A stretch of 64,000 nucleotides of DNA from a virus (IMGVR_UViG_3300033064_001044:1428-65427); one strand, 5' to 3'. Shown: positions 1 to 36,491, counted from the stretch's first letter. Translations and numbers: made by a program. The notes: a model not told the origin generated them from the sequence alone.

Positions 1-190
1 TACCTAGTTGTTATCAGATACTAACTACACAACAACACATACACACATAACTAACTAACTAAATAACTATTACTAATCACTAACAATTTACCTTGTGTAA
101 TCACATACTAAATACATAGTGATAACAACTATCTATCTCTCTCTATTACTCTCTCTATCTATTACTAATAACAATCATTGTTTATTACTA

Positions 191-207
191 AAGGGGCTTC
201 GCCCCTT
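191..207. terminator. GC-rich hairpin, terminator-like
   Basis: AAGGGGC-TTC-GCCCCTT stem-loop; no long U tract on +. Confidence 0.4.
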
Positions 208-575
208 AGACCCCACCCAATAAACAATAAGTAAAGTAATACAGTTATTAGTTGTTGTAAGTAATCGTCTAAAGAAGTTATGTATTACTTATTTATTTGA
301 TGTTTCATCTTCTGGAACTGTGAGTGATGATGTTATTTATTTATTAGTAAATAAACTTCTATAGATAAATAAACAACTATTTATTTTTATTTATTGTCCA
401 AATCTTTGGCTCTACGGGTTCTCGGATTTATTGCGGTGCGACTAGGTATTCCGACACCCAATCCACGCTCATAACACGCTTGATTTACCCCAAGTTGATA
501 ATTGACTTCAGGTCATGCCATACTTAGCCCACGCAAGTGCCCCTCCTGAAAATGGACTCGGTGAGAAAAAGTAGA

Positions 576-650
576 AAGTTATTTCTATTTTTATTTATAC
601 CAACGACATTGTGTGTCGTGTAAATAAAATAAATAAAATAAAAATAACTT
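576..650. repeat. Long imperfect inverted repeat with inner hairpin
   Basis: AAGTTATTTCTATTTTTATTTATAC ... GTAAATAAAATAAATAAAATAAAAATAACTT flanking ACGACA-ttgtg-TGTCGT. Confidence 0.55.
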
Positions 651-1063
651 CTCCGTAAATAAATTAGTTGTTACTAATAAAAAGTAACGCATAACTTCTT
701 TATGAATACAAACTACTTCCAATGACTAACTGTTTGGCAAACACCTTTGGCTCTTGCGTAGTGGTCAGACACTTTCTCTGATAGTAGTTGCTACTTACTT
801 CAAGTAAAAATAATCTCCGATTAGTTTGTAAAACTGTTCGCCTGTGTATGCGACAACTTACTAAACAAACTTCTTTAGAGATTATGCGTTCAAGGTTTAT
901 TACTTCCGACCTTGTTGTAAGTAGATGTTATTCAACTATTACTAATTTACTTCGCGTCAATAATAAATACGCACTATCACACTCTGTATCACCAACCTAC
1001 AGAGTGTGGTGGTGTGTAGTTATCTCTACACAAACTCAATCCGCTAACGAAAGGTAATACGAC

Positions 1064-1306
1064 ATGGCTACAACAACACAACGCAAAACAAAAGCAGAAC
1101 GCAATTACGAAAACAATACACGCGACATTGAAAACACAATCGCTGTGTTTCGTAAAACAGATAATGTTGAACGACTTGTTCATCTCCTTGCTATGGAACT
1201 TGAACCAAATCAGTTTCGTATGTTGTTTGCTACAGAGTTTGCTTGCGTTCCACTAACTGTTGTTTATGTTGATGAGAACGGCAATCGCATTGAGGAGAAT
1301 AACTAA
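1064..1306 (+). CDS. hypothetical early protein
   Basis: 80 aa ORF with GAAAGG RBS; first gene of a tightly coupled + strand operon. Confidence 0.8.
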   Translation: MATTTQRKTKAERNYENNTRDIENTIAVFRKTDNVERLVHLLAMELEPNQFRMLFATEFACVPLTVVYVDENGNRIEENN

Positions 1307-1407
1307 TGTCTAAAGAAGTTACTTTCAATAATTGTTCTGTATGTGGTCGTTTAGTTATCAACGACTATTGCTCACACCCAACTACAACAGATAAGGAAAA
1401 CAAATAG
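1306..1407 (+). CDS. small Cys/His protein (33 aa, not in ORF track)
   Basis: MSKEVTFNNCSVCGRLVINDYCSH...; TAATG overlap with the upstream stop, GAGGAG RBS. Confidence 0.55.
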   Translation: MSKEVTFNNCSVCGRLVINDYCSHPTTTDKENK

Positions 1408-1526
1408 TGTCTATAACAATTCGTGTTGATGATGAAATAGAGATACTCGTTGATGATACAAACGCACACTTCACACAATTAGTAACACGCACTAAACAAC
1501 TACAACAACTAATCGGAGGTAAGTAA
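1407..1526 (+). CDS. small hypothetical protein (39 aa, not in ORF track)
   Basis: GTG start overlapping TAG, AAGGA RBS, fills the gap to the next gene. Confidence 0.55.
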   Translation: MSITIRVDDEIEILVDDTNAHFTQLVTRTKQLQQLIGGK

Positions 1527-1528
1527 TT

Positions 1529-1795
1529 ATGGGTAGTAACTTCGCAAATGATTTAGCAAGCGGTGAGTTTGTAACTTCTTTAGAACAACAAATCTCAATT
1601 CACTTCTCTGCTAATTGTTATCCACCTGTTCCACAATTCATGGTTGATGTTGCTGTAAAAGCAATTCAATTAGTAAATGATGATGAAGGCGAAACACTTA
1701 TTCAATTACCTCCCCATGTTTCGTTCCGTAATGAAAAAGAAGTATCCGCTTACAACTGTATTGACCAATTACGATTAGAAAGTTGGACTAACTAA
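1529..1795 (+). CDS. hypothetical protein
   Basis: 88 aa ORF, GGAGGT RBS. Confidence 0.8.
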   Translation: MGSNFANDLASGEFVTSLEQQISIHFSANCYPPVPQFMVDVAVKAIQLVNDDEGETLIQLPPHVSFRNEKEVSAYNCIDQLRLESWTN

Positions 1796-1799
1796 TCTC

Positions 1800-2069
1800 A
1801 TGAGTAAAACATACAAAGATAAAAAGTATAAGTATCTAACTTCTTTAGAACAATCAACACACTTGCGAACAAAGTGTGTAGAAACTAATTGCGAGCATTG
1901 TTACGCAATTCCAAAAACAAATCGTAGTAAGCGAGAGCGTGAAGCACTTGCTTATGAACTATCCGCTTACAACTTACTAACAGCAACAGACGCACTACAA
2001 GAAACACTAGATGTGTTCGGGGTAGAAAAAAACAATCCGCTAACAACAACAACGAAAGAGGCTAACTAA
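1800..2069 (+). CDS. hypothetical protein with CxxxxCxxC cluster
   Basis: 89 aa ORF in the operon. Confidence 0.65.
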   Translation: MSKTYKDKKYKYLTSLEQSTHLRTKCVETNCEHCYAIPKTNRSKREREALAYELSAYNLLTATDALQETLDVFGVEKNNPLTTTTKEAN

Positions 2070-2071
2070 CT

Positions 2072-3454
2072 ATGTATTCAATCCTTATTACTTCACAAAC
2101 AAATCAAGTATCAACACAACGACAGAACTTAGTTGTCGCACTATCAAGTGATGATGTTCGTGTATGGACACGCACAACAAATGGTGGTCGCGGTGAGAGC
2201 AACGCATGGTCAGATACAACATGGCTTGATTTACAAGCAACACAGTTTGCTAATGAAGCAATCGTTGGCGAAATACTTTCGTCACCACTAAGTCCTATTG
2301 ACGAACTAGCACTAGAGAACAATGACCGACCAACAATTCTTATTCAGAAACTAACAAAGCAATTCGGTTTGCGACACAAGACGATTACTAATCGTTTGTT
2401 AGGTGACGCAATTAGTGAAGTGGAGAGTTTGATTACTACAGACCCAAACAAATTATCAAAGTATCGTAGTGACGGCAGAAGTGATAAGTCTGCTATTACT
2501 AACAGCACACCAACACCAACACAAATGCCAATAACTATTGTTCGCACACCTGTTGTTACACCACTAGCAAATGTAATTGCTACAGAAGTTACAGGCGATT
2601 ATGTTGCTCTAATTCCAAAACCTGAAAGTGTTGCTGGTTATGTAACACGCAACTTTGCTGATGTAAATGAAGTAACTATTTACGATTACGCAATCACTCA
2701 CAAGAAAAATGTTGCTATAGAAGGTGAAGCAGGAACAGGTAAAACAACTTCTGCTAAACACTATGCGTTTATTCGCAACCTTCCTTTCTATTCTTTCTCA
2801 TCATCAGTTGGTGCTGAATACTCACAACTATTCGGCAAAGTTATTATTAGTGATGAAGGCAAACCAACATGGCAAGACGGAGTTATTACGCAGATGTGGA
2901 AAACAGGTGGTGTATTAGTTATTGACGAAGGTAACTTCTTACCTCCTAAAATTGCTTCATCACTTCACAATGCGTTTGACGATAATCGTATTCTTACTTT
3001 GCTTGATAAGAAGGGCGAGATTATTACAGCACACCCTAATCTCCTTGTAATTCTTTCTTACAACAACGGCTATCGCGGAACTAATCGCATGAACGAAGCG
3101 TTCCTTGACCGCTTTACTTTCAAGTTACAGTTTGAATACGACATAAACATTGAAAAGAAGTTTATTCCTTCTAAAACTTTGTTGGAGTTGTTTGCTTCAA
3201 TGCGAGCAGACGCATTACAAGGTTTGTATGAGACACCACTATCAACAAGACTTCTAAAGAACTTTGTTGAGTTGTGTGGTCTTGGTTATGAGTTTGCTGT
3301 TCAGAACTTACTCAATAACTTTGCTGATGATGAGCGTGGCTCTGTTGCTTTGTTGTTAGAAGCAAAGCGTTACAACATTATGTCTGAACTTGGATTTGCT
3401 GTTGAGAACATTGTTGTTGAACAACAAGATGAAGCAGAACTTCTAAATGCGTAA
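2072..3454 (+). CDS. MoxR/CbbQ-NirQ-NorQ (CobS-like) AAA+ ATPase with N-terminal extension
   Basis: Walker A GEAGTGKT, Walker B LVIDEGN, NxGYRGT and NEAFLDRF motifs, STR sensor-2; adjacent VWA gene. Confidence 0.9.
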   Translation: MYSILITSQTNQVSTQRQNLVVALSSDDVRVWTRTTNGGRGESNAWSDTTWLDLQATQFANEAIVGEILSSPLSPIDELALENNDRPTILIQKLTKQFGLRHKTITNRLLGDAISEVESLITTDPNKLSKYRSDGRSDKSAITNSTPTPTQMPITIVRTPVVTPLANVIATEVTGDYVALIPKPESVAGYVTRNFADVNEVTIYDYAITHKKNVAIEGEAGTGKTTSAKHYAFIRNLPFYSFSSSVGAEYSQLFGKVIISDEGKPTWQDGVITQMWKTGGVLVIDEGNFLPPKIASSLHNAFDDNRILTLLDKKGEIITAHPNLLVILSYNNGYRGTNRMNEAFLDRFTFKLQFEYDINIEKKFIPSKTLLELFASMRADALQGLYETPLSTRLLKNFVELCGLGYEFAVQNLLNNFADDERGSVALLLEAKRYNIMSELGFAVENIVVEQQDEAELLNA

Positions 3455-3504
3455 GCACTTATTCGGGATAGAAAAAAACAATCCGCTACTACGAAAGGTA
3501 ACAA

Positions 3505-5514
3505 ATGACTAGCGTTATGCCCAATGTATTACACGAACAAACTTCTATAGAAACTGAATTAGCAAACAGAAAGCGTGACCGCTTACAACGATTAGCACAG
3601 GTGTTTAGTCGTGCTAACTCTGTTCTTACTTCACGACCAATCGCTGTTCATGTTGTAAGTGAGCCACACAAGAACGCACCTGCTTGGTCTAGTGCTAGTG
3701 ATGTGTGGTTCAACTTAGACAAAGTGCGTGATGAGTTTGACGCACAATCTTTGTTATCACTACAGGGTTTGAACTTCCATGAGTTATCTCATGTTCGTTA
3801 CACACCACGCAACGGCTCGGAGATTTGTCGTTGGGTTATTGAGAACGATAAGTGGCAAGCGTTCAATGCGTTAGAGGACATGAGAATTGAGGGCTTGTTA
3901 GTTTCTCGCTTCCCTTCAATCGCTAACTGGCTTACCGCAACTGTTCTTGATTACTTAGTAAGAGAACCCGAAGGACTAGGAACTTTGTTCGCACTTGTTC
4001 GTGGTCGTAGATACTTACCTGTTGAGTTACGCAAAATCGCAAGAGAAAACTATTTGCGACAAGAGGACATAGATGAGTTGTGTGATGTTGTAGATAGTTA
4101 CCGCACTTTGTTATTCCCTGAGGATACAGAAGTTGCTAAAGAACTTATTGCTCGTTACCACGACTTGTTACAGAACTTACCAATCATTGAACAACCAACT
4201 GGAAGTGGAACTGGTAAAGGTGATGATGAGGGAACTGTAATTGTTCAAGTGCGTATTCACGACCCTCATGGTCACGCAACACGACCAACACAAGGTGTTG
4301 AGTCAAGCAACTCACGACCTGCTTCTAAAGAGGAACAGCGTCAAGACAGAGATAATCTAAAGAAGCAAGACAAACAAGATGAAGCAGAAGTATCTAATAA
4401 AAAACCTGATGTTGTTATAGATGTTCATGTTGATAACACACCACAGGACACAACAGATACAACTTCTAATCAACCTTCTAAAGAGAAGTCTGATACACCT
4501 GATGTTGCTGATAACTTTGATGATGTTGATGTTGATGTTGATGATTATGACTTTGATGATTACAACGACACACAACCAACACCACCAAAAGATAATGGCA
4601 ACTCATGGGGAACTGGTAGTGAAGGTGACGACAACAAGCCTGACGCTATCAACGAACAGATAACTGATTTGCTTGATGAAATTGTTGATGAACTTTCTAA
4701 AGAACTTGACCGACTATCTATTCAGGTCAATGGTTCTCCATTGTTAGAAGGCAACAAAACAAAAACACCACAGCAAATTGACTACACACCAAAACCTGTT
4801 CCACAAGATTTGTTCTTAGTTTCTAAAGCGTTTGCTAGAGAACTAGAACGCTTGCGAGCAAAGCATGACCCTGCTTGGGATAAGTTTGTTGATAGTGGTC
4901 GCTTCAATGTAAATCGTTATCTCAATGGTGGTGAGTTTGATACTTTGTTTGATGAGTGGTCAAGTGGTCGTGATGATGTAACTTCTATAGAAGCCGTAAT
5001 CTGTTTAGATTATTCAGGTTCTATGGAAGGCGATAACGCGACTTCTGCTTACCAATCTATGTGGGCAATCAAGAAGGCACTAGAACAAGTCAATGCTCGC
5101 ACAACAGTTGTGTTGTTTGACGATAGAAGTCCAAGACTTCTTTATGGTGCTGACGACAAAGCAGGAACAGTAATTCGTGACGCTGGAACTGCTTATGGAA
5201 CTGACCCTACTGACGCACTTCTTTATTCTCAAAATGTATTAGCAACAACTGAACAGCCAATCCGTTTGTTATTTATGATTACTGACGGGATTTGGCAAAG
5301 CAAAGTTGCGGAGGAAAGTGTTAGAGAGATGAAGCGAGCAGGTGTTGTAACCTGCCAAGCACTTATCGCTAACTACGAATTACCTAAAGAGTATCTAAAC
5401 GAGAACCGACATGAGTTTGAGTTAGTGTCTCATGTTCGTAGTGCTAAAGATGTTCTCGCTTTAGGTAAGGACTTAGTGCGACTATCTATCGCACGACAGT
5501 TAGTTACTCACTAA
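3505..5514 (+). CDS. CobT-like VWA protein: N-terminal HExxH domain, acidic linker, C-terminal VWA/MIDAS
   Basis: FHELSH and NALEDMRIE; D/T/P-rich linker; CLDYSGSM MIDAS, GT and ITDG motifs. Confidence 0.88.
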   Translation: MTSVMPNVLHEQTSIETELANRKRDRLQRLAQVFSRANSVLTSRPIAVHVVSEPHKNAPAWSSASDVWFNLDKVRDEFDAQSLLSLQGLNFHELSHVRYTPRNGSEICRWVIENDKWQAFNALEDMRIEGLLVSRFPSIANWLTATVLDYLVREPEGLGTLFALVRGRRYLPVELRKIARENYLRQEDIDELCDVVDSYRTLLFPEDTEVAKELIARYHDLLQNLPIIEQPTGSGTGKGDDEGTVIVQVRIHDPHGHATRPTQGVESSNSRPASKEEQRQDRDNLKKQDKQDEAEVSNKKPDVVIDVHVDNTPQDTTDTTSNQPSKEKSDTPDVADNFDDVDVDVDDYDFDDYNDTQPTPPKDNGNSWGTGSEGDDNKPDAINEQITDLLDEIVDELSKELDRLSIQVNGSPLLEGNKTKTPQQIDYTPKPVPQDLFLVSKAFARELERLRAKHDPAWDKFVDSGRFNVNRYLNGGEFDTLFDEWSSGRDDVTSIEAVICLDYSGSMEGDNATSAYQSMWAIKKALEQVNARTTVVLFDDRSPRLLYGADDKAGTVIRDAGTAYGTDPTDALLYSQNVLATTEQPIRLLFMITDGIWQSKVAEESVREMKRAGVVTCQALIANYELPKEYLNENRHEFELVSHVRSAKDVLALGKDLVRLSIARQLVTH

Positions 5515-5572
5515 TGATTACCTTCGGGATAGAAAAAACAACAACCAACCTTCTAAAGAAAAGAGGCAACAA

Positions 5573-6163
5573 ATGAAACTATCAGAACTAAAAGTCGGAA
5601 ATGTTTATGGAATTGTTCCTTCATGGGGTTACAACAATTCAAGTGCTAGAAAGACAGCAACAGTAAAAGAAAATGATGTTGAGAAAGCAACAATTATTTC
5701 TCTTGATAAGTATGAGTATCAGGCTTCACAAAGATACCAAGACCAAACTAAGTTTGTGTTAGCAAAACAAGGTGATAGGTCTGTTGGTGTAGTTGTAAAA
5801 GCGGTAGATAAAAATGGTAATGACTTCTACTGGACAGCACGACTAGCAGACATTGTTGAGGAGTGGTCTAAGTTAGAACCAATTTGGGCAGACAAAAACA
5901 AACTGGAACAAGAACAACAACTCATTGAGGAAGCAAAACAAGCAAAAGCAAAAGCAATTAGACGACAAGCAGAGGAGTATGTAAATCGCGCTAATGTATC
6001 TATTCCAAAATCTGTAACAGATTTAGTTGGTAAGCGTTGCGGTAATGTAACTATTCATACAACAGGTTATGGAGAGGACACGACAGCCGTAGCAACACTT
6101 TCGTTATCAGACTTGGAAACTCTTATTGAACTCGCTTATGACGGAAAGGAACAGGTGGCGTAA
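5573..6163 (+). CDS. hypothetical protein
   Basis: 196 aa ORF, AAGAGG RBS. Confidence 0.8.
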   Translation: MKLSELKVGNVYGIVPSWGYNNSSARKTATVKENDVEKATIISLDKYEYQASQRYQDQTKFVLAKQGDRSVGVVVKAVDKNGNDFYWTARLADIVEEWSKLEPIWADKNKLEQEQQLIEEAKQAKAKAIRRQAEEYVNRANVSIPKSVTDLVGKRCGNVTIHTTGYGEDTTAVATLSLSDLETLIELAYDGKEQVA

Positions 6164-6336
6164 TGAAACAATACACAATCACAATTTCAGATGAGCAATA
6201 CTCGTTACTAATCAAAGCACTTGGTCGGCATAAGTCATGGCTCAATGACGGAGGGTTCTTTCGCTCTGCTCATAGTGCTAGTGACTTACTTGCTCACATA
6301 AAAAACAATGTAAAAGAGGAGGCGGTGTCTTTATGA
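6163..6336 (+). CDS. small hypothetical protein (57 aa, not in ORF track)
   Basis: MKQYTITISDEQYSLLIKALGRH...; overlaps the upstream stop (TAATG) and the downstream start (ATGA). Confidence 0.7.
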   Translation: MKQYTITISDEQYSLLIKALGRHKSWLNDGGFFRSAHSASDLLAHIKNNVKEEAVSL

Positions 6337-6629
6337 AACTTCTAAATAAGTTACGCAAACAAAAAACAAAAAAGAACTTCTTAGCAAACATAGAGGAATA
6401 CTTGCTAAAGAAGGACATAGTAGAAACTTGTGTATCTGCTTTGTCCTTCACCAAACCTGAACTAGAGGAGGAAGTTGTAGAACACTTATTCCTAACTTCT
6501 TTAGTCGCGTTTGTTCCTGTAGAAATCTTAGAAGGTATCAGAGATGAACTAACTAATGACGCAGATAAAAAAGTAAAAGAAGTTGTAGGTATGTATGAGT
6601 CTTTCAACATGAGGAGTAACCATGAATAA
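6333..6629 (+). CDS. hypothetical protein
   Basis: 98 aa, GAGGAGG RBS. Confidence 0.75.
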   Translation: MKLLNKLRKQKTKKNFLANIEEYLLKKDIVETCVSALSFTKPELEEEVVEHLFLTSLVAFVPVEILEGIRDELTNDADKKVKEVVGMYESFNMRSNHE

Positions 6630-6807
6630 TCTAACTCGCAGAGGTTGGGTAGTCCTAGTAATTATTCCTTCACTATTACTAGGACTACTTATTGCTTATG
6701 TAACAAGAGATGTTTGTTATGTAGGAACTGATAAGTCGTATGCCAATGCTATTGGCTATGGCTCATGTCTAAAGAACATTGACGAAGTAATCAAACAAGG
6801 GAGATAA
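6622..6807 (+). CDS. small membrane protein
   Basis: LTRRG followed by a hydrophobic helix; GAGGAG RBS. Confidence 0.75.
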   Translation: MNNLTRRGWVVLVIIPSLLLGLLIAYVTRDVCYVGTDKSYANAIGYGSCLKNIDEVIKQGR

Positions 6808-6809
6808 CT

Positions 6810-7154
6810 ATGTATGAAGGTTATGAAAAACCAAAAGAAAGATGTGTAATTGCTACACACAGTAAAGGTAGTAAGGCTGTTCGTATTAGTTATACAGACT
6901 ATACATACGCTGTTATAGAAGGTGGCTCTGATACTTACAACGGACAAGCATGGGCAACCTTTCATAGACGAGAGGACTTAGCAATTAGAAAGCAAAGGGC
7001 TATGTCTAAGAACTACCCACAGTATTCCTTTGAGGTTGTGGCTACACAAGATGTAAGAAGTAGTGAAGGTCGCAGACTAAAGAGACTTCTAAAACTAGAA
7101 AAGATACAACGAGACATAAACACAGTAACAGAAACCGAAATCGTTTCGGGATAG
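6810..7154 (+). CDS. hypothetical protein
   Basis: 114 aa, GGGAG RBS. Confidence 0.75.
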   Translation: MYEGYEKPKERCVIATHSKGSKAVRISYTDYTYAVIEGGSDTYNGQAWATFHRREDLAIRKQRAMSKNYPQYSFEVVATQDVRSSEGRRLKRLLKLEKIQRDINTVTETEIVSG

Positions 7155-7183
7155 AAAATCCGCTAAGAGAAAGAGGGAACACC

Positions 7184-7864
7184 ATGACCACCCAAACAAA
7201 ACATAAGCAAGCAGGTTCTAAAGCAGGTAATCAGTATGGAACTTACAAGGTTCGCACAATTACAACAGCACAACAGAACTTCCTAAAGAAGTTACTGGAA
7301 CAAAAGAAACACGACATAGATGTATCCGCTATCAACTTTGATGAAGTCAATGTTCAATGGGGAACAGAACTCATTGAGACACTTATCAAGGCGGAGGATA
7401 AATACGAACGCCTAGCAAGTGAGCGACAAGTAGAGTATGTAAAGTCTTTAGCAAACAATCGTATTGGCGGAGATGTCGTGCTTCAATCGCTAAATGATAA
7501 TTCAACTGCTAAAGAAGTTTCTGTATGGATTGAGCAACTACAAAACGCACCATACGCAAAGACAATTACAATCGCAGAAACAGGTGCGTATCGTTACAAC
7601 GGAATTGTTTATTCTGTTCGCAAAGGTCGGCAGAGTGGCAACTGGCAAGTGTTCTCAATCAACCCTGAAACAAACAAATGGGAATACAACAGAACCGCAT
7701 ACAAGTATCTGTATGAACTAAAAGATACTGACCGCCTAACTCTCAATGAAGCAATAGAAGCAAGTGGGCAGACAGGCTCTTGCGTTCATTGTGGGCTAAC
7801 ACTTACAGCATTGAAGTCTGTTGCTGGTGGCATGGGTTCTACCTGCGCTAAGAGGTATCACTAA
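7184..7864 (+). CDS. protein with C-terminal DUF6011-like Zn ribbon
   Basis: CVHCGLTLT..SVAGGMGSTCAKR; two internal (T/S)xxQxx(F/Y) repeats. Confidence 0.75.
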   Translation: MTTQTKHKQAGSKAGNQYGTYKVRTITTAQQNFLKKLLEQKKHDIDVSAINFDEVNVQWGTELIETLIKAEDKYERLASERQVEYVKSLANNRIGGDVVLQSLNDNSTAKEVSVWIEQLQNAPYAKTITIAETGAYRYNGIVYSVRKGRQSGNWQVFSINPETNKWEYNRTAYKYLYELKDTDRLTLNEAIEASGQTGSCVHCGLTLTALKSVAGGMGSTCAKRYH

Positions 7865-8163
7865 TGCCAACTGCTAAAGAACTTTCAAAGCAACTAAAAG
7901 AGTGGTATCCAAAAGGTGATGAACAAGTAGCACTTATCGCAGGGCTATTAGATAAGAGCGAAATCTATGATGTTATTTACAACTCTTATGATGATGTTGA
8001 GGACTACGAAGTTACTGATGAGATGTTTCAAGATGTTGTAAGTAAAGTCGCAAACTGCGATAACGAACTCAATGCCCTTTGGGAAGTTATCAAAGATGTT
8101 ATTACTGGTGAATACGAGAAGCGTATTCACTTAGAAACCGATAACGAACTATGGGAGGCGTAA
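7864..8163 (+). CDS. acidic hypothetical protein with C-terminal DxxLW tag
   Basis: 99 aa ending LETDNELWEA. Confidence 0.8.
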   Translation: MPTAKELSKQLKEWYPKGDEQVALIAGLLDKSEIYDVIYNSYDDVEDYEVTDEMFQDVVSKVANCDNELNALWEVIKDVITGEYEKRIHLETDNELWEA

Positions 8164-8663
8164 TGAATAACTTTGATAACGAAGCAGATTGGTTGTGGGA
8201 TTACAAAAACGGATTTCGTATTCCTTCACAGTTTGGTTTCGGGATAGAAATTACACCAACACCCGATAAGCAAGACAGTAATTGGTATTCAGGTGAAGTA
8301 GCAACTCTTACCAATAAAGAACTAAATCACACAATAAGTATCTGTGCGGTAGGTGAGATTATGATTATTTACAGACCTGATACTTCTAAAGACGAATACG
8401 AAACATTTTATTCTCTAAATGATTTACCGAAAGAACAATTCGTCAATGACGCTTCTGTTCAAAGAGCGTTAGAGATTGAACGCAAATTAGATTACACACA
8501 CAACAACTGGTATGAGTGCTTTGATGAACTAACACAAGAGTTTGGTGATTGCGTTCATCACGAAATACAAGAAGCACTTGATTGTGCCGTTTCACAACTA
8601 TGCCAACACCGCTTGATTGAGTCTGTATTAGACCAAACCGATAAAGGACTATGGGAGGAGTAA
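8163..8663 (+). CDS. acidic hypothetical protein with C-terminal DxxLW tag
   Basis: Start moved to the TAATG overlap after a GGAGG RBS; ends LDQTDKGLWEE. Confidence 0.8.
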   Translation: MNNFDNEADWLWDYKNGFRIPSQFGFGIEITPTPDKQDSNWYSGEVATLTNKELNHTISICAVGEIMIIYRPDTSKDEYETFYSLNDLPKEQFVNDASVQRALEIERKLDYTHNNWYECFDELTQEFGDCVHHEIQEALDCAVSQLCQHRLIESVLDQTDKGLWEE

Positions 8664-8666
8664 CTT

Positions 8667-9002
8667 ATGACTACAGTAAAAAACATGATAAAAAATCTAA
8701 AGGAGTATGACGAGAACGAACACATACTGGTTCTTTATTGGAGTAAAGAACTTGGGTATCAGTTTGTAGAACACCTGTTACAAGATTTGAAACATGAACA
8801 CAAACTAAGTGATGAACAAATGACTAAGTTATTTGATGAAACTTGGGAGTATGTAACAGACATGGAGTATGAAACACCTGATGTTGGAGACGCTCTAATA
8901 AGTAATCTAAGAGAAGGTTTAGAGGAAAGCATTACAGAACTTCTAAAAGAAGTTGTGGATAAAGAACTAGAAATTGTTGATAAAACACTATGGGAGGAGT
9001 AA
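8667..9002 (+). CDS. acidic hypothetical protein with C-terminal DxxLW tag
   Basis: 111 aa ending LEIVDKTLWEE; N-terminus loosely similar to 7864..8163. Confidence 0.8.
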   Translation: MTTVKNMIKNLKEYDENEHILVLYWSKELGYQFVEHLLQDLKHEHKLSDEQMTKLFDETWEYVTDMEYETPDVGDALISNLREGLEESITELLKEVVDKELEIVDKTLWEE

Positions 9003-9006
9003 CACT

Positions 9007-9372
9007 ATGAAATACGCACACATGATTATCGGAGTTCCTGATGAGCAAGACCCTGAACAAGTTGCTTTAGAAATCTTGGCAGACTTCTCGGAGAACAACT
9101 ACGACAGCAATCCTGAACAACTGGAACAAATCTTTGCTCGCATTGTTGGAGTCAATTCAGACAATGATGTTCTTTACATAGGACAAGACGGCAACTACGG
9201 AGACGCTAGAGATTTATGTCTATTAGACACTTCTTTATGGTCTAACGCTGATGAGGAAGCCTTCTCTGAAATCGCAGAGAACGATAGCGAGTTAGCAAGT
9301 TTCGCTTCACAATTCAATGGCGACCCCTCTCTTACCCCTGCTAGATACTTATTAGGAGACACACATGAGTGA
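9007..9372 (+). CDS. acidic hypothetical protein
   Basis: Start moved to the ATG after the GGAGGAG RBS. Confidence 0.75.
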   Translation: MKYAHMIIGVPDEQDPEQVALEILADFSENNYDSNPEQLEQIFARIVGVNSDNDVLYIGQDGNYGDARDLCLLDTSLWSNADEEAFSEIAENDSELASFASQFNGDPSLTPARYLLGDTHE

Positions 9373-10000
9373 TACACCCGAAATCAAATTAGTAAAGACT
9401 TCAAGAGGTTCTACCTATCGCATGAAAAAGAAAGAGATAGTCAGGGTTCAGAAATCCAATCTGACTTTGCCTTACGAAGTTGGCAAACTTCTTAGGGGAT
9501 TGGCTATGCCTCAAAAGAAGGCTTACTGCTTACTTCTTATAGAAGGTAGTTGGACACTACAAAGTATCGCTAACGAACTTCTTTGCCACAGACAAACTGT
9601 TCTTGATTACACAAGGTCTAAAGAAGCACAAGACGCTGATGTATTAGCAAGCGTTTGGGATTTACCAATTCCAAAGTTGCCAAGAGTTGTTGTTGGTGAA
9701 GTCTATGAAAAAGATGTTGTTGAGCCTAACGCTGATGTTCTAAAGAGGTTATTAGAACTTCAACCTTTGGCACAGAAGGTTCGTAGTTACAGCCCAAAGT
9801 TTCGTGAGGAAGCAGAGGAATACACAAAACTATTAGCAGAGGAGATTGGTCGTGGAGTAACTGCGTATCAACTTTCTAAAGAACTTGGTATCACCATTGG
9901 TGCTATCAATTTCCGTCTCACACGATACGGATACAAGCCATTAGGCAAAGGCAAATCAAAAGCCTATAACACTATTCTTGAACAAAACCGACCACAATAA
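9365..10000 (+). CDS. putative DNA-binding protein with two HTH-like segments
   Basis: WTLQSIANELLCHRQTV and VTAYQLSKELGITIGAI. Confidence 0.7.
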   Translation: MSDTPEIKLVKTSRGSTYRMKKKEIVRVQKSNLTLPYEVGKLLRGLAMPQKKAYCLLLIEGSWTLQSIANELLCHRQTVLDYTRSKEAQDADVLASVWDLPIPKLPRVVVGEVYEKDVVEPNADVLKRLLELQPLAQKVRSYSPKFREEAEEYTKLLAEEIGRGVTAYQLSKELGITIGAINFRLTRYGYKPLGKGKSKAYNTILEQNRPQ

Positions 10001-10011
10001 GGAGGCAACAC

Positions 10012-10467
10012 ATGATTACAAAAGAACTAGAAACAACTACAACGACAACTAAATGGCAAGGAATAACTTTCGGGATAGAAACTATCTTGTCTGACTACGA
10101 CCAAATAGTTATAGATGTTCCTGTATTTCAAAGCGGTTACAACAACACTACTAATAATTGGGAAGTTGTGGCAACAGGTGAAACTCGTAAGTTTCGTTTA
10201 GAAAAAATTGAATACAGTTTGGTAAATAGAAAGAACGACTCTGTTGGTATTCACTCTTTGTATGGTAGAGGTTTCACAAAAGCCAACACCCTAAGGGTTC
10301 AAGGCAATTCTTTCTATAATGAACACATAACTGATGAAATCCTTGCTCAAATCCCTGACCACTATCACGACAAAGCAAAAGAACAGTTTTTACTAACTGC
10401 TAAAGAACTTACAGAGCAGATGAACACAATAAATGCCAACGGGCTATCACTAACACCACAAAGATAG
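10012..10467 (+). CDS. hypothetical protein
   Basis: 151 aa, AGGAGG RBS. Confidence 0.8.
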   Translation: MITKELETTTTTTKWQGITFGIETILSDYDQIVIDVPVFQSGYNNTTNNWEVVATGETRKFRLEKIEYSLVNRKNDSVGIHSLYGRGFTKANTLRVQGNSFYNEHITDEILAQIPDHYHDKAKEQFLLTAKELTEQMNTINANGLSLTPQR

Positions 10468-10475
10468 GAGGAACT

Positions 10476-11093
10476 ATGCCAAATCATTGTATAAGCACAC
10501 TAACAATTACTGGTAACTCAAAACAACTACACAAACTTCTAAAGCAAGTTGAAATAACAAAATCGGAAGCAACTCCAAGCCATGATGAACGAGAGTTCTC
10601 ATGCCACAAGATTATTCCGCGACCTGCTAAAGAAGATGATAATTGGTATAACTGGAACTCGGAGAACTGGGGAAGCAAGTGGGATTTAGCAGACTTTGAG
10701 TGGATAACTAACGATTGGGAAAACGGATTTGTTCATGCTTCTTTTTGGACAGCGTGGAGTCCTATTCCCCTTGTGTTAGAGAAGTTATCTAAACAACATA
10801 AGTCTTTAGAAATGACTTACCGCTTCCATGATGAAGGGGCTGGTTTCTACGGCACTTACTCTTTCAAGGGTGGAGTGCTAACAGTTGATGAGGAAGGTGA
10901 GTCCTTCACCTGTGATGTTAGAACTCGCTACTGGGGATACTCGGAACACCATTACTGTAAAGAGTGTGAAAATCACTTTGAGTGTCCTGATGAAAACTAC
11001 GAAGGCTCTATTGAGGAAATCTGTGAGGATTGTAAGACTTCTTTAGAAGCAACAGAGAAAGACTTATGGGAGGAGAAAGAAAGTGTTGCGTGA
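10476..11093 (+). CDS. DUF1281/YubB ferredoxin-like protein with C-terminal Cys cluster and ExxLW tag
   Basis: MPNHC start, WYNWNSENWGSKWD, FWTAWSP; ends LEATEKDLWEEKESVA. Confidence 0.8.
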   Translation: MPNHCISTLTITGNSKQLHKLLKQVEITKSEATPSHDEREFSCHKIIPRPAKEDDNWYNWNSENWGSKWDLADFEWITNDWENGFVHASFWTAWSPIPLVLEKLSKQHKSLEMTYRFHDEGAGFYGTYSFKGGVLTVDEEGESFTCDVRTRYWGYSEHHYCKECENHFECPDENYEGSIEEICEDCKTSLEATEKDLWEEKESVA

Positions 11094-11352
11094 ATTACCT
11101 ATGCTTCAACTCAAACGAGAACCGAATAAAAAAGGTGGGGGAAGTTACCTATCAAAAGACAAGCGTATCTATGTCCTCCGAAATGAGGACAACCTATGGG
11201 CGTGGGGATACCACGACTACAACGATAAGGGTGAGTTCATTGGTAGTCGTAATGGTGACGACTCTTTGTATGGCGCAAAGACACATTGTGTTGAAGCCAT
11301 AAACAAAGTTCTTTATGAACAAGCCTATGACGAAGCACTATGGCAAAACTAA
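11083..11352 (+). CDS. hypothetical protein with C-terminal DxxLW tag
   Basis: 89 aa ending YDEALWQN. Confidence 0.7.
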   Translation: MLRELPMLQLKREPNKKGGGSYLSKDKRIYVLRNEDNLWAWGYHDYNDKGEFIGSRNGDDSLYGAKTHCVEAINKVLYEQAYDEALWQN

Positions 11353-11414
11353 TGGATTACGAAACTGTAATTCTAATAACTGGGCAACCTTCTTTAGAAG
11401 GTATCAACCCGAAG

Positions 11415-11452
11415 TTGAATAAAGGAATAAATCAAGATAACCTGAGGTTATC
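11415..11452 (+). promoter_or_regulatory. putative sigmaA promoter overlapped by a palindromic operator
   Basis: TTGAAT-17 nt-TAACCT; GATAACCT-G-AGGTTATC at 11436-11452. Confidence 0.45.
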
Positions 11453-11473
11453 CATAACAGAGGAGGCAACAAC

Positions 11474-11677
11474 ATGGCAATAAAACATTACCTAGTGGAA
11501 TTGGCAACGGAAGTTCCAATCACTATCAACGATAAGAACCTAAAAGACAATTCAATTTATGAAACTGTCTTAGAGGCTACGCAACATTACATAAACGATT
11601 ACATAGAAACTGATGAGCAATTCTTTGTAAAGATTGTTGCGGAACAAACACATGAGGAGAGTGATACAAATGTCTAA
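11474..11677 (+). CDS. hypothetical protein
   Basis: 67 aa, GAGGAGG RBS. Confidence 0.7.
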   Translation: MAIKHYLVELATEVPITINDKNLKDNSIYETVLEATQHYINDYIETDEQFFVKIVAEQTHEESDTNV

Positions 11678-12428
11678 CAAGACACTACTACGCAAGAAAG
11701 CATTGGCAAAGAAAAGAATTGCGTCTAAGGTTTGGCGTGACTCTTTCAAAGAGTTGAAGTCGCGTTATCCTGTTGATTGGGAAGCGTTACACACAACAAC
11801 AAGTGGAGATAGAGAAGCAACAAGACGAGAACTAAGACGCTTGTATCCTGCTGACTTCGCTTCTATCTACACACGCCACGCAAAACAAAACGGCATAACG
11901 CCACACATCACCAACGAGATACATCAGGAAGGAGGTAGTCCAATCCAATCACAAAATCTGATAATCAAACAAACAGTAAAACAATCATCACCATCAGACT
12001 TCACAAAAGAAGGTTACTCTCTAATTGCTAGAGAACTTATGCCTTCTCCAAGCGGAGGAGTGTTCTCGTCAATGAGCCGAGTTCTATTCGCTGATAACAT
12101 AGACGGCACAGAGTTTGAAGCCGTTGGTTGTAACAAGTGCTTCATGTTGTTTAGAAATCTCCAAGCAACAGCACACCATGTCGGTAGAGTCCATAACGGC
12201 AAAACTGGCATACACAAAAAAGCAAAAGCAAAGGCAAAGCCAATCGCAAAGCCAATCGCAAAGCCTTCAACACAGCCTGTAGTATCAACAACACCGCTTA
12301 TCCCTACTGGCATTGACCCTGTAAAAGCCATTACAGACCTTGTAGCACAACGACAGTATTGGGAAGCACAAGCAAAGGCGTATGAGGAACAACTCAACGC
12401 AATCCGCAAAGCCTTCAACGGCAAGTAA
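11670..12428 (+). CDS. basic protein with C2H2-like zinc finger, AKPI repeats and C-terminal coiled coil
   Basis: GCNKCFMLF...HHVGRVH; start moved to the ATG after GAGGAG. Confidence 0.7.
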   Translation: MSNKTLLRKKALAKKRIASKVWRDSFKELKSRYPVDWEALHTTTSGDREATRRELRRLYPADFASIYTRHAKQNGITPHITNEIHQEGGSPIQSQNLIIKQTVKQSSPSDFTKEGYSLIARELMPSPSGGVFSSMSRVLFADNIDGTEFEAVGCNKCFMLFRNLQATAHHVGRVHNGKTGIHKKAKAKAKPIAKPIAKPSTQPVVSTTPLIPTGIDPVKAITDLVAQRQYWEAQAKAYEEQLNAIRKAFNGK

Positions 12429-12441
12429 TCTATTCACCAAC

Positions 12442-12478
12442 AAGTTGATAGGGGCAGTTGGTTTGCCCCTATCAACTT
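12442..12478. other. 15-bp stem-loop without U tract (RNA processing or stabilising hairpin)
   Basis: AAGTTGATAGGGGCA-gttggtt-TGCCCCTATCAACTT. Confidence 0.55.
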
Positions 12479-12497
12479 CTATAGAAGGGAGTATCCA

Positions 12498-12731
12498 ATG
12501 GATACTACGAAAGAAAAACAAACAGCAGAACAACTAATCATGGTGTCTCATAGCCTGAAACTATCAAGCGACATCTTTATTGAATTAGTTGAAAAAGGTT
12601 ATCGCCCTGAAAACATGGAGAACATCTATGCGTTCATGTTCGGTATGAGAACTACGGCTGACGCACTAGGTAATCTAATAGAAAGCCAAAAGGCATTACT
12701 GGTAGCCTCTAAAGACCTTGATAGCCTATAA
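12498..12731 (+). CDS. hypothetical protein
   Basis: 77 aa, AAGGGAG RBS. Confidence 0.7.
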   Translation: MDTTKEKQTAEQLIMVSHSLKLSSDIFIELVEKGYRPENMENIYAFMFGMRTTADALGNLIESQKALLVASKDLDSL

Positions 12732-12747
12732 AGAAAGGACAACAACT

Positions 12748-12954
12748 ATGGATTGGCTTACTACTAACGAAGTATCCGAAAAGACAGGATTGACTAGAGA
12801 TACTCTAAAGACTTATCTAAGCAATAAGTCAATGCCTCAACCTGACCACTACTTTCAACGAACACCTGTTTGGAAAGAGGAAACAATCAACGAGTGGATA
12901 ACGACAAGACAAAAGACAAAGCCTGTTCCTTCTAAAGAAGGTTCAGACTTCTAA
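12748..12954 (+). CDS. AlpA/excisionase-like winged-HTH protein
   Basis: WLTTNEVSEKTGLTRDTL...MPQPD...PVWKEETINEW; next to the recombinase. Confidence 0.8.
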   Translation: MDWLTTNEVSEKTGLTRDTLKTYLSNKSMPQPDHYFQRTPVWKEETINEWITTRQKTKPVPSKEGSDF

Positions 12955-12963
12955 ATAACTTAG

Positions 12964-13004
12964 AAGGGGAACGAGTTGCTTCGGCAACTTGTTCCCCTTT
13001 TTTT
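12964..13004 (+). terminator. intrinsic terminator
   Basis: AAGGGGAACGAGTTGC-TTCG-GCAACTTGTTCCCCTT followed by a T tract. Confidence 0.85.
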
Positions 13005-13011
13005 GTGCCCA

Positions 13012-13057
13012 AAAGTTACTGGTCAGTAACTTGGCTTTAGTCCTACTCGTTGGTAAC
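13012..13057. promoter_or_regulatory. palindromic site pair upstream of the recombinase (operator or recombination site)
   Basis: AAGTTACTGGTCAGTAACTT and a degenerate copy CCTACTCGTTGGTAAC. Confidence 0.4.
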
Positions 13058-13082
13058 ATAGGGGTTGAGGAGAGGAACTCAA

Positions 13083-14408
13083 ATGGCGTATGTAGTTACC
13101 CGAAATAAACGGCATACAGGCTATTACCGCAGAAGCGGTAAGGTTCAGAGTGCTGGAACTTATGGCACTAGAGCCAAAGCCTTGAACTCTGCCCTGCTCG
13201 CAGAGGAAGGCATAGTCTCAACTAACCCCGAACTAATTACAACCCTTGAAGCCTATGTAAAAGATTGGCTCATCAACCGAACAGATGTTCGGGTAATAAC
13301 AAAGAAAACTTATGCCATAACTCTAAAGAAGTATGCCCTACCTTCTTTGGGTCATAGACAAGTAACAGGCATAACTCGTAAAGATGTTAGGCAACTTATA
13401 GAGAAGTTGCTCTCCGAAGGTATAAGTCCTGCCACAGTTTCCCATGTAAAAACAGCGTTGGGTTCTGTGTTCAGGCAACTCGTTGAGGAAGAACAAATCC
13501 CCGCAAACCCTACGCATGGCATAAAGATAAAGACTTCTAAAGCAGACCCCACAAGTTCTTTAGAGCCTTCAGATTTCAAAAAAATTGTTGAGTCCCTGGA
13601 AACTGAAGGGGCAAAGATGTTTGCTCAATTCTTAGTTGCTTCAGGCTGCCGATTTGGAGAAGCCACAGAACTAAGAGTAAAAGACTTCAACTTCAAGTCA
13701 AAAGAAGTTTATGTTCGTAGAACTGTGAGTGATGTAGGCAAAGCCTTGAACAATGGAAGCCGTTTCCTTATCGTGCCTTCAACAAAGAACGGGCATAAAC
13801 GCACAGTAATCATCAACAAAAGCCTCAATGAAGCCCTAAAGAAGTATGTTCGGGATAGAAAATTAGGGGCTAATGATTTGCTGTTTTCCAAAGCCTTAGT
13901 GATAGAGTTTGGTAAAATAGTGACCACAGGTAGTCAATTGGAAAGGACTAAGAAGCCCTATACCGTTGGAAGTAGACTATTCCAACACGCAACTCCGTAC
14001 TCGTACAATGTCGGTGGGTGTAGGTGTGACCTGTGTAAACAAGCGGTCAGTAAGTATCGCAAACAATACAGAGAGGACAAATCAAAAGGTAGAGAAAGCC
14101 TAAGCCAAAGCCTTAGTCAAAGCCAAAGCCTTGACCAAAGCCTTGACCAAAGCCACCTCAGTCGTGACAAGTGGAGAACCACTTGGAACAAAGCCATAGA
14201 AAAGTCAGGTATTGGTTGGTATCCAAGAACGCATGACCTAAGACATGCCAACGCTACTCAACTCCTAAAGAGTGGGGTAGATGTGCATGAGGTCAAAGAG
14301 CGTTTGGGTCATCAGTCAATCACAACGACAGAGCGGTATCTACACCGTCTCCGTCACCAAAGTTCAAATGCTGCGGAAGCAGTAAATGATTACTTTGGGG
14401 AAAGGTGA
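13083..14408 (+). CDS. tyrosine recombinase/integrase with inserted Cys/His module
   Basis: GCRFGE (Arg), STKNG (Lys), HDLRH, LGHQS, TERY (Tyr); N-terminal SAM-like core-binding domain. Confidence 0.9.
   Translation: MAYVVTRNKRHTGYYRRSGKVQSAGTYGTRAKALNSALLAEEGIVSTNPELITTLEAYVKDWLINRTDVRVITKKTYAITLKKYALPSLGHRQVTGITRKDVRQLIEKLLSEGISPATVSHVKTALGSVFRQLVEEEQIPANPTHGIKIKTSKADPTSSLEPSDFKKIVESLETEGAKMFAQFLVASGCRFGEATELRVKDFNFKSKEVYVRRTVSDVGKALNNGSRFLIVPSTKNGHKRTVIINKSLNEALKKYVRDRKLGANDLLFSKALVIEFGKIVTTGSQLERTKKPYTVGSRLFQHATPYSYNVGGCRCDLCKQAVSKYRKQYREDKSKGRESLSQSLSQSQSLDQSLDQSHLSRDKWRTTWNKAIEKSGIGWYPRTHDLRHANATQLLKSGVDVHEVKERLGHQSITTTERYLHRLRHQSSNAAEAVNDYFGER
14095..14155 (+). repeat. coding tandem repeat of AAAGCC/CAAAGCCTTGAC units (SLSQSLSQSQSLDQSLDQS)
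   Basis: Direct repeats visible in both DNA and protein. Confidence 0.8.
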
Positions 14409-14414
14409 GAAACT

Positions 14415-14978
14415 ATGAAACTAACACAACGCGGAAAAAAAGTAGTTGTTATCGCAACTATAACAGTAGCAAGTTCATTGTTCTTTAGCGGTTTTGCAAT
14501 TGCTAAAGCACTTGAACCTTCGAAGGTAGTGGTTGTACAGCCAGTTCAACCCGCCCAATCAACAGTCGAGAAATCTCTAAAAGTAAGTCCGTCAGATAAG
14601 TTGGAAGAGTTGAGGCAAAAGCCTCAACTAACAAGACTTGAATTGAAAGCCTTACTAAAGGAAGTTGGGTTTGAGGGTAAAGCCTTGAGCCAAGCATGGG
14701 CTATTGCTATGCGTGAGAGTCGTGGTCGTTCTATTGCCTTCAATGGTAATGAAGAGACAGGCGATAACTCTTATGGACTCTTTCAAATAAACATGATTGG
14801 GAAAATGGGAGATGTACGCAGAGATAAGTTCAGCATGGTATCTAATGCAATGCTTTTAGACCCTGTGACAAATGCCCAAATTGCTCATTACATGAGCAAG
14901 GGTGGTGAAGATTGGTCAGCATGGAAAGGTATGACACCTCGTGCTAAAGAATGGCTAAAATCTTTTCCTAAAAACTAA
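14415..14978 (+). CDS. membrane-anchored lytic transglycosylase (SLT/lysozyme-like)
   Basis: N-terminal TM; AWAIAMRES, DNSYGLFQINM, DPVTNA, DWSAW. Confidence 0.85.
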   Translation: MKLTQRGKKVVVIATITVASSLFFSGFAIAKALEPSKVVVVQPVQPAQSTVEKSLKVSPSDKLEELRQKPQLTRLELKALLKEVGFEGKALSQAWAIAMRESRGRSIAFNGNEETGDNSYGLFQINMIGKMGDVRRDKFSMVSNAMLLDPVTNAQIAHYMSKGGEDWSAWKGMTPRAKEWLKSFPKN

Positions 14979-14984
14979 ATAAAG

Positions 14985-15019
14985 GAAAGCCCTCCTGTGT
15001 TGGTGACAGGAGGGCTTTC
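14985..15019. terminator. stem-loop terminator
   Basis: GAAAGCCCTCCTGT...ACAGGAGGGCTTTC directly after the SLT gene. Confidence 0.75.
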
Positions 15020-15054
15020 TGTTAGGATTACAGTTCTACAAAAGGAGAAAGCCT

Positions 15055-15213: not shown

Positions 15214-15221
15214 TAATTACT

Positions 15222-15258
15222 AAAGACCCATTAGCCAAGTGCTAGTGGGTCTTTTTTT
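15222..15258 (+). terminator. intrinsic terminator
   Basis: AAAGACCCATTAGC...GCTAGTGGGTCTTTTTTT. Confidence 0.8.
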
Positions 15259-15266
15259 GTATCATA

Positions 15267-15659: not shown

Positions 15660-15662
15660 GTA

Positions 15663-35215: not shown

Positions 35216-35236
35216 TATGCTCCTAGTTAGTTAAGT

Positions 35237-36489: not shown

Positions 36490-36491
36490 TA

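Follow-up and report, generated by a model that had tools for sequence, protein, structure and literature searches.

The first 14 kb of a 64,000-nucleotide stretch of viral DNA contained not a single copy of 10 of the 16 four-base palindromes or of at least 13 five-base words. The stretch, called the window in its entirety here, comprises bases 1428 to 65427 of the 65,427-bp viral record IMGVR_UViG_3300033064_001044, which CheckV rated 68% complete. Seven of the missing palindromes and the five-base words were avoided in this arm alone, and the avoidance began at a sharp edge that coincides with a predicted genome end. The reading that we favor, with moderate confidence from the analysis as a whole, is that the phage DNA enters the cell from the end of this arm and that only the leading arm is thus exposed to restriction.

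Words missing from the first 14 kb

The site-free arm (the block) and the transition that follows it had these limits in window coordinates:

1 to 13996, no strand: strict site-free zone
13997 to 19717: graded inner edge, with palindromes returning from GTAC (13997) to ATAT (19717), the GGATG class at 16652, the GCATC class at 17617, and GGWCC at 19526

The absence of ACGT, ATAT, GGCC, GTAC, TCGA, TGCA, and TTAA from positions 1 to 13,996 had been claimed in a first-pass annotation made by reading the sequence, and a count of all 16 four-base palindromes returned zero copies for each of the seven. The positions given there for their first appearance were exact (GTAC, 13997; TGCA, 14284; TCGA, 14520; ACGT, 15322; GGCC, 15331; TTAA, 15478; ATAT, 19717), and the words did recur beyond the arm, with whole-window totals of 165 for ACGT, 135 for ATAT, 22 for GGCC, 168 for GTAC, 35 for TCGA, 258 for TGCA, and 384 for TTAA. 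The claim that avoidance extends into the AT-rich leader also held, as TTAA and ATAT together numbered zero at positions 1 to 787; avoidance therefore constrains noncoding DNA also. For the first 14 kb, palindrome expectations were 21 to 115 from base composition and 8.5 to 100 from a trinucleotide-conditioned model, the latter also being given as 15 to 100 for the seven arm-only palindromes. Counts conditioned on protein sequence, which had been proposed as a check, gave zero observed against tens expected for most words: given the proteins, positions 1 to 13,996 were expected to contain 74 copies of TTAA, 60 of ACGT, 47 of AGCT, 41 of TGCA, 38 of ATAT, 36 of GTAC, 27 each of GATC and TCGA, 9 of GGCC, and 8 of CCGG. 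The smallest simulated count was at least 13 for six of the seven arm-only palindromes, GGCC being the exception.

The remaining three absent palindromes, AGCT, CCGG, and GATC, had no copy in the 64-kb window or in the entire record, where 48 to 193 copies of each were expected in the nonblock part. The palindromes still present in the block were AATT (75 copies), CATG (47), CTAG (30), TATA (22), CGCG (9), and GCGC (3); given the proteins, AATT (58 versus 109 expected) and TATA (16 versus 41 expected) occurred at about half of expectation. Outside the arm, the counts of TTAA, ATAT, GTAC, and TGCA matched or nearly matched expectation, which indicates that the rest of the genome is not under the selection that acts on the arm.

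A test of five-base words covered 472 word classes without an embedded avoided 4-mer, on both strands of the block. Sixteen classes were missing from both strands (Poisson expectation, 3.8), and for 13 of these, 10 to 25 copies were expected from the density in the rest:

Purged five-base classes: GCATC, GACTG, TGACA, GAATG, GGATG, GGWCC, GAWTC, CACGG, CASTG, CGATG, GGAGC, CGACG, GGACG

Several of them are recognized by known Type II or Type IIS enzymes (SfaNI, FokI, AvaII, and TspRI). Their absence from both strands implies that double-stranded DNA, not RNA, is recognized. RNA-level selection, for example by toxin endoribonucleases, was ruled out as the main signal, the nonpalindromic five-base words being absent in both orientations.

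A separate bias by strand was also observed. On the plus strand of the block, CCAG occurred once and CTGG 29 times (183 versus 197 in the rest of the genome), CCTC and GAGG numbered 10 and 60, and TTTT and AAAA numbered 14 and 166. The bias of CCAG was common to the closest relatives and faded in distant ones. Such a bias could arise because the block escapes orientation-dependent, Type III-like enzymes or because terminators are selected against.

Edges of the site-free zone

The start of the window is not the end of the contig: the window begins at record base 1428, and the site-free zone starts 243 bp upstream of it, at record base 1185, following a GTAC at record base 1184. Record bases 1 to 1184 contained all seven arm-avoided palindromes and carried minus-strand open reading frames (ORFs). 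The zone coincided with the only plus-strand gene cluster of the genome, everything from window position 15,663 onward being on the minus strand.

One sharp left edge at about record base 1190 fitted all 21 avoided words (every P > 0.1). On the right, the words returned singly between record bases 15,424 and 21,144. When measured against a sharp right edge at 15,424, the further extension of the word-free stretch had P values of 5e-6 for TTAA, 3e-8 for ATAT, 1e-3 for GCATC, 2e-3 for GGWCC, and 8e-3 for ACGT. The right edge as a whole was staggered (over about 7 kb) and ran into the convergent minus-strand genes: some words reappeared about 1 kb before the terminator-like hairpins of the operon and others 2 to 4 kb past them, with avoidance extending beyond the integrase gene into the ribonucleotide reductase (RNR) gene and the next gene. 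A property of a transcription unit or of a mobile module would yield two sharp edges; the pattern seen is that of exposure decaying from one end.

Four GTAC sites lay in the integrase and transglycosylase genes (window 13997 to 14814), whereas a 93%-identical relative (L003/L019) had none until its reductase gene (its position 18688), so that the inner limit for a given word shifts between very close strains. A search for recent recombinational import of the inner 1.5 kb or so, which might explain the GTAC sites within the integrase gene, revealed no stretch that matched relatives unusually well. Contigs of several sequencing runs branched or ended at record bases 1 to 254 and about 15624 to 17894 (L070; positions 25, 157, 253, 254, 16317, 17229, and 17829), and these loose ends at the record start and the inner border indicate coexisting strain variants. 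The word depth of contigs in the block and in its flanks was 10.3 to 12.9 versus 10.7 to 12.7 in run X1 and 39.7 to 53.6 versus 38.8 to 40.4 in run X2; this equality of depth within and outside the block rules out a long terminal repeat like those of T5 or SPO1.

A predicted genome end at the left edge

The closest cultured phages were the Streptomyces myoviruses BRock and LuckySocke, of the Borockvirus type, which have homologous capsid and terminase proteins and the same architecture as the phage of the window. A nucleotide search against cultured phages gave no match. The identities to BRock (capsid, 60%; TerL, 54%) suggest a related but separate group at the genus level or higher. The BRock record is linear, with a one-strand cluster (gp1 to gp27; 869 to 12,128) occupying the left end and the opposite strand carrying every other gene, and this order, a one-strand cluster at one genome end and the rest opposite, was common to BRock, LuckySocke, and the phage of the window. 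The deposited sequences carried exact terminal repeats of 221 bp in BRock and 344 bp in LuckySocke, the latter deposited in reverse orientation with the repeat at the same place. According to excerpts of PMC7453282, the BRock repeat was mapped by double read coverage with sharp margins. In both phages, the repeat contained a G-run motif from position 33 and the octamer GGCTACTG, which ended 36 nucleotides (nt) before the end of the repeat.

A noncoding element with a G-run flanked by copies of GGCTACTG was conserved in five genomes of the window's family and lay exactly at the sharp edge. Its G-run and GGCTACTG motifs are probably terminase or terminus signals. When the two offsets from BRock and LuckySocke were applied, a repeat of about 208 bp was predicted at record bases 1206 to 1413 (window -221 to -14). 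No avoided-word site fell inside the predicted repeat in any of the five genomes, and the last such site before the zone lay 22 nt from the predicted start of the repeat, on its outer side, in the window's genome and 114, 67, 1, and 275 nt from it in the others. There is thus good reason, short of proof, to regard the left edge as a predicted genome end. The first-pass annotation had placed the arm at a physical end of the virion DNA and had named a distant terminus as the finding that would count against it; the proximity stood, the zone starting 22 nt before the predicted repeat, and the terminus itself was placed by homology. Three same-strand copies of GGCTACTG were located at record bases 569, 1165, and 1370 (window -858, -262, and -57), with copies at the same place in four relatives, and the element was kept even between genomes with early proteins less than 50% identical.

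Recurrence of the block in relatives

A total of 47 related loci were gathered by searches with the ATPase, the von Willebrand A (vWA) protein, and the PHROG 887 protein described below, and a search with the ribonucleotide reductase yielded at least 120 close relatives, on contigs of up to about 103 kb. GATC and CCGG were absent from every related locus of at least 9 kb, and AGCT was absent from nearly all; the AGCT exceptions were L044, which had it only outside its block, and L005, with one copy. Three relatives were complete (98 to 100 kb, with assembly overlaps of 123 to 127 bp indicating circular maps). Each had exactly one ACGT-free block, of 13.5 to 14.7 kb, which was its sole oppositely oriented cluster, and the core gene order of the block was conserved among them. 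In the first 6 kb of this block, 12, 17, and 19 words with at least 6 expected copies were absent, compared with 0 to 3 in the control windows, of which there were 13 or 14 per complete relative genome.

Among the 14 ATPase-bearing loci, 11 contained the edge and could be evaluated, and all 11 had palindromes avoided in the block only. Recurrence in related genomes, another of the checks proposed earlier, was thus borne out, with word sets that differed. The avoided sets were lineage specific (for example, ACGT and GGCC; ATAT and GTAC; or ACGT, ATAT, GGCC, and TCGA). ATAT was purged from the arm of the window's phage and from 9 of the 11 evaluable loci, and no list of avoided words was longer than that of the window's lineage, together with the relative 93% identical to it. 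Differing lists at a conserved position indicate that selection is still at work and that the sets of restriction enzymes behind it differ; they speak against shared sequence ancestry and against composition as the cause. The observed/expected ratio of the avoided words in relatives was about 1 directly left of the edge; to its right, where the first 6 kb are zero by construction, the ratio was 0.03 to 0.35 from 6 kb to 12 to 14 kb and about 1 by 14 to 18 kb. Single-word gaps in the relatives were nested and anchored at the left. A 16.8-kb TCGA-free gap (mean spacing, 868 bp) in relative G002 (record 31007 to 47825) lay well outside the early block, and nothing in the model of arm exposure accounts for it.

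Genes of the arm and of the remaining genome

The features of the arm and its inner border were as follows (window coordinates):

1 to 787, plus strand: AT-rich noncoding leader (about 65% A+T) that separates the predicted terminal repeat from the first early ORF, with a hairpin at record 1618 to 1640
788 to 14978, plus strand: tightly packed cluster of about 26 ORFs, presumed early, most without a family match
2072 to 3454, plus strand: AAA_5 (MoxR/CobS-like) ATPase, a core early gene present in all relatives
3505 to 5514, plus strand: acidic protein of 669 amino acids (aa) whose C-terminal part contains a weak von Willebrand A domain, a core early gene paired with the ATPase
7864 to 9372, plus strand: four consecutive very acidic small ORFs (isoelectric points, 4.1 to 4.4), variable between lineages
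12718 to 12954, plus strand: excisionase-like helix-turn-helix protein
13065 to 14408, plus strand: tyrosine recombinase (integrase), conserved in 4 of 4 genomes, with the first GTAC sites of the window in its 3' third
14415 to 14978, plus strand: lytic-transglycosylase-like (SLT_3) protein, encoded by the final gene of the cluster, after which come the terminator-like hairpins
14985 to 15019 and 15222 to 15254: two terminator-like hairpins with 14-bp stems, at the end of the plus-strand cluster

The leader was composed of TAAATAAA-like and TTATTTATT-like runs. In addition to the ATPase, the vWA protein, the excisionase-like protein, the integrase, and the transglycosylase, the cluster contained about 20 orphan ORFs. 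Nine early genes of the cluster were conserved among relatives; these nine and the four acidic ORFs are candidates for an early protective function, the acidic ORFs being candidates for DNA-mimic anti-restriction proteins. Modeling of the 170-aa acidic ORF with AlphaFold, for which 13 sequences were used, gave a structure of low confidence (predicted local distance difference test score, 59.6), and two acidic ORFs had no usable match in Atlas. ArdA was found in none of four genomes. The LuckySocke record carries an annotated ArdA-like anti-restriction gene (101870 to 102541; L075) that lies within its terminal gene cluster, next to the inner limit of that cluster. No PHROG or Pfam annotation of the A1/A2 DNA transfer type was present among the 27 block ORFs, T5 A1 and A2 not having been compared directly. 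A scan of the arm end for host promoters with the sigma-70 consensus gave 3 sites versus 8.4 expected, and this consensus may not suit the probable actinobacterial host. The integrase contained a serine/glutamine-rich low-complexity insert between its domains that varied in length among relatives, and its C-terminal catalytic part was almost invariant.

The oppositely oriented remainder began with the two genes next to the block and included a marker of the host phylum:

15663 to 17699, minus strand: class II (B12-dependent) ribonucleotide reductase, the first gene of the remainder
17826 to 19343, minus strand: 505-aa PHROG 887 protein (annotated queuine tRNA-ribosyltransferase), matching PHROG 887 at E = 3e-53
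30635 to 30856, minus strand: WhiB-family gene, a marker of phages of Actinomycetota

Other products of the minus-strand remainder were a deoxynucleoside monophosphate (dNMP) kinase domain, RecA, PolA, a primase, a DnaB-like helicase, a DnaC-like loader, and contractile-tail and baseplate proteins. In our best explanation, the window belongs to a linear myovirus genome that is about 99 kb long and ends in short direct repeats of about 208 bp. The PHROG 887 protein had no Pfam or NCBIfam match, and a role in DNA modification is unconfirmed; it was 79 to 97% identical across most relatives and 63 to 65% identical in the most distant loci, with an invariant cysteine cluster (C370, C373, C379, and C388). 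No tRNA was found in the record, and Rfam gave no matches. The PHROG 887 profile found no prophages in one genome per species.

The whiB product matched PF02467 above the cutoff in 4 of 4 genomes, and among the cellular relatives of WhiB in the matches listed, 79 of 80 were labeled Actinomycetota, with 37 to 47% identity. The runs that contained the sequence were freshwater and viral metagenomes. The host is probably a low-GC freshwater actinobacterium, an assignment resolved to phylum level. One reductase relative was labeled a "Bacteroidota bacterium" metagenome-assembled genome, which was treated as a binning label.

Proposed entry of the leading arm

In the proposed model, the site-free zone is the left arm, made up of the predicted terminal repeat, an AT-rich leader of about 0.8 kb, and an early cluster of about 14 kb transcribed inward, and the arm end would be the first part of the genome in the cell. 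The arm would stay naked in the cytoplasm during expression of its genes, and the remaining genome would be outside until then or would arrive only after early products had neutralized restriction. The many short-site Type II and Type IIS enzymes of the host population would then select on the leading arm alone and would remove every copy of more than 20 words of 4 to 5 bp from it, with the same words kept at normal density in the other 85 kb or so. GATC, CCGG, and AGCT, purged genome-wide, would form a second tier, presumably for enzymes that are not neutralized. Avoidance confined to the arm is useful only with the rest of the genome beyond the reach of the enzymes, and polar entry with early protection is the best-documented route to this. 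That entry starts at the arm end, that it is staged, and that an early product gives protection are inferences.

Position-dependent escape of this kind is known from two groups of phages. T5-like phages resist restriction-modification unless sites fall in the DNA transferred first, according to excerpts of PMC10644984, and in the T7-like Murciavirus (NAR 2025), only motifs in the first-injected region determine sensitivity, as stated in parts of PMC12455610, which also note that bioinformatic surveys of site avoidance have ignored site position. Like the arm of the window, the first-step-transfer (FST) DNA of T5 and BF23 (Tequintavirus) is a terminal arm with small pre-early genes. Restriction of T5 occurs only via sites in that arm, sites elsewhere being harmless (PMC10644984, in part); here, the same is suggested by the normal density of words elsewhere, and the T5-type pattern of sites missing from the arm but present elsewhere was found in the sequence. 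In T5 likewise, the protective function is still unidentified after decades. The two systems differ in several respects. The T5 FST segment lies inside a terminal repeat of about 10 kb, whereas the repeat predicted here is about 208 bp and the block has the depth of its flanks; T5 has a repeat-rich injection stop signal of about 1 kb, whereas here contiguous genes extend up to the convergent RNR gene with two hairpins only. T5 is a siphovirus of Escherichia coli, and the phage of the window is an unrelated myovirus of a probable actinobacterium. The first-pass annotation had started from the premise that the T5 segment is depleted of restriction sites. This premise failed for 4-bp palindromes in general: all 16 were near expectation in T5 FST DNA, and three words with at least 6 expected copies were absent, compared with more than 20 in the window's arm. 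Site avoidance in T5 concerns particular enzymes (PMC10644984, in part).

The T7-like phages (Autographiviridae) resemble the phage of the window in having a short terminal repeat, here by homology, and early genes directed inward from the leading end. The Murciavirus case concerns single Type I motifs, whereas the arm of the window lacks tens of 4- to 5-bp words of the Type II/IIS kind. Unlike in T7-like phages, neither a single-subunit RNA polymerase nor Ocr was found among the scanned proteins, in a record that lacks about a third of the genome, and the genes beyond the arm run the opposite way. Two features fit a T7-like slow entry coupled to transcription, namely, the uniform inward orientation of the cluster and the depletion of T-runs from its sense strand (the TTTT bias given above); the opposite orientation of the genes beyond the arm fits a T5-like pause at the arm end.

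Conjugative plasmids offer a further parallel, their leading region being the first DNA to enter, as is proposed for the arm. Anti-defense genes are enriched in plasmid leading regions, and short palindromes are depleted in some plasmid groups (excerpts of bioRxiv 10.1101/2025.04.03.647016). Plasmid DNA enters single stranded, and its depletion is partial and specific to plasmid groups, whereas the purge in the window's arm is total. Genome-wide avoidance of restriction sites is the classical phage pattern. The loss of GATC, CCGG, and AGCT in the window's family matches it; the position-dependent avoidance confined to one arm does not.

Several results weigh against staged entry from the arm end. 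Past the block, the genes are oriented against the proposed direction of entry, and pulling by transcription in the style of T7 could not simply go on there. The inner border has two hairpins only and no long, repeat-rich noncoding stop region as in T5. No known anti-restriction or anti-defense family matched any of the 27 block ORFs, and the model has to postulate one early function active against more than 20 different enzymes. The integrase/excisionase pair in the arm suggests a temperate option. The terminus was predicted from motif homology, the 21 runs found all being kept as contigs, and BLAST gave no alignment between the edge element of the family and the BRock or LuckySocke repeats. 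Finally, BRock has no avoidance block, and T5 first-step DNA has none either, which implies that the signature is not a general consequence of polar entry; it reflects the restriction pressure of the host population of the window's phage, not polar entry itself. BRock also differs in other ways, having early genes almost unrelated to those of the window (1 of 27 with a weak match), a G+C content of 52%, 29 tRNAs, and, according to PMC7453282, no recombination genes.

Alternative explanations

The normal word density of the rest would also be predicted if the whole genome entered at once and the virion DNA were shielded except in the left arm, by base modification or by copackaged coating proteins like Dar of P1. 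We regard this explanation as rather unlikely. The strongly conserved PHROG 887 protein, with its queuine tRNA-ribosyltransferase annotation, adjoins the block, and the dNMP kinase domain is typical of phages with unusual nucleotides, both of which favor a shield. For a 7-deazaguanine modification of the TGT/DpdA kind, the PHROG 887 match is the sole support. Against these stand the lack of Pfam and NCBIfam matches for the PHROG 887 protein and the absence of preQ0-synthesis (Que) genes among 40 scanned proteins of the rest, in a record that lacks 32% of the genome. Furthermore, TTAA and ATAT contain no G, so a deazaguanine could not protect them, and there is no known way in which modification could spare one physical end and yield an outer edge that is sharp and an inner edge that is graded. 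Also considered, and very improbable, is the idea that the block is a semiautonomous recombining integrase/excisionase module that moves among phages and hosts and thereby meets more restriction enzymes. The tyrosine integrase and Xis-like genes do lie at the inner end of the block, the G+C content of the block was 2 to 4.5% below that of the rest in four genomes, and the early genes diverged more than other genes (44 to 72% identity for the ATPase versus 79 to 86% for the PHROG 887 protein). All complete relatives nevertheless kept the position, orientation, and core gene order of the block, as did BRock-type phages, which have no integrase; its outer edge lies at the predicted genome terminus, not at an attachment site; and avoidance runs past the integrase into the RNR gene and its neighbor. 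The freedom of a module from sites would, moreover, be useless when the other 85 kb can be cut.

A smaller probability still is given to avoidance driven by early nucleases of the phage itself, directed against host DNA, which the arm would have to survive until self-protection is made. Lineage-specific word sets do accompany lineage-variable small early ORFs, and the pre-early genes of T5 include functions for degradation of host DNA (excerpts of PMC10644984), but more than 20 specificities would be required from a few small ORFs, none of which had a nuclease match, and the rest of the genome would still have to be absent or protected, which reduces this explanation to staged entry with early protection. 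A chimeric assembly or an effect of composition has a negligible probability. The record is a metagenome contig, incomplete by CheckV, which leaves room for such an artifact; contigs of six runs from two studies nevertheless contained 97 to 100% of sampled words, contigs of four runs spanned the left edge, and the architecture was repeated in at least 11 independent contigs. GATC, CCGG, and AGCT were missing from both parts of the record alike, and the trinucleotide- and codon-conditioned models still predicted tens of sites. Assembly artifact was ruled out by the run contigs together with the recurrence in relatives.

Significance of the site-free arm

The principle of position-dependent escape has precedents in T5-like phages, T7-like phages, and the leading regions of plasmids, and it has been shown experimentally so far for a few models of the coliphage type. 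What is new here is that more than 20 words have been purged in an all-or-none way from about 14 kb, that avoidance falls into two tiers, that it starts sharply at a predicted terminal repeat, and that the word lists are lineage specific within an abundant family of uncultured phages. The phenomenon was not described in the literature searched: the word "restriction" occurred zero times in the papers on freshwater whiB phages PMC10914622 and PMC6802176, and "palindrom" occurred zero times in PMC6802176.

Seen more broadly, the arm may be a fossil record of the pan-restrictome of uncultured freshwater actinobacteria, the purged lists giving the Type II and Type IIS specificities met and the arm encoding a generic early function that shields about 85 kb from more than 20 enzymes; we offer this as a tentative proposal that we hold less probable than its negation. 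To our knowledge, no restriction enzyme specific for ATAT has been described. If entry from the arm end is correct, the leading end of a phage genome could be located by computation alone, and the restriction specificities of a host could be read without culture, including candidates for unknown enzymes. The approximately 26 early ORFs, nine of them conserved, would be marked out as the place to seek a broad anti-restriction mechanism. Should the arm indeed record the pan-restrictome of its hosts, word-free arms anchored at one end could be used to call the genome polarity, the entry end, and the host defense repertoire of uncultured phages from sequence.

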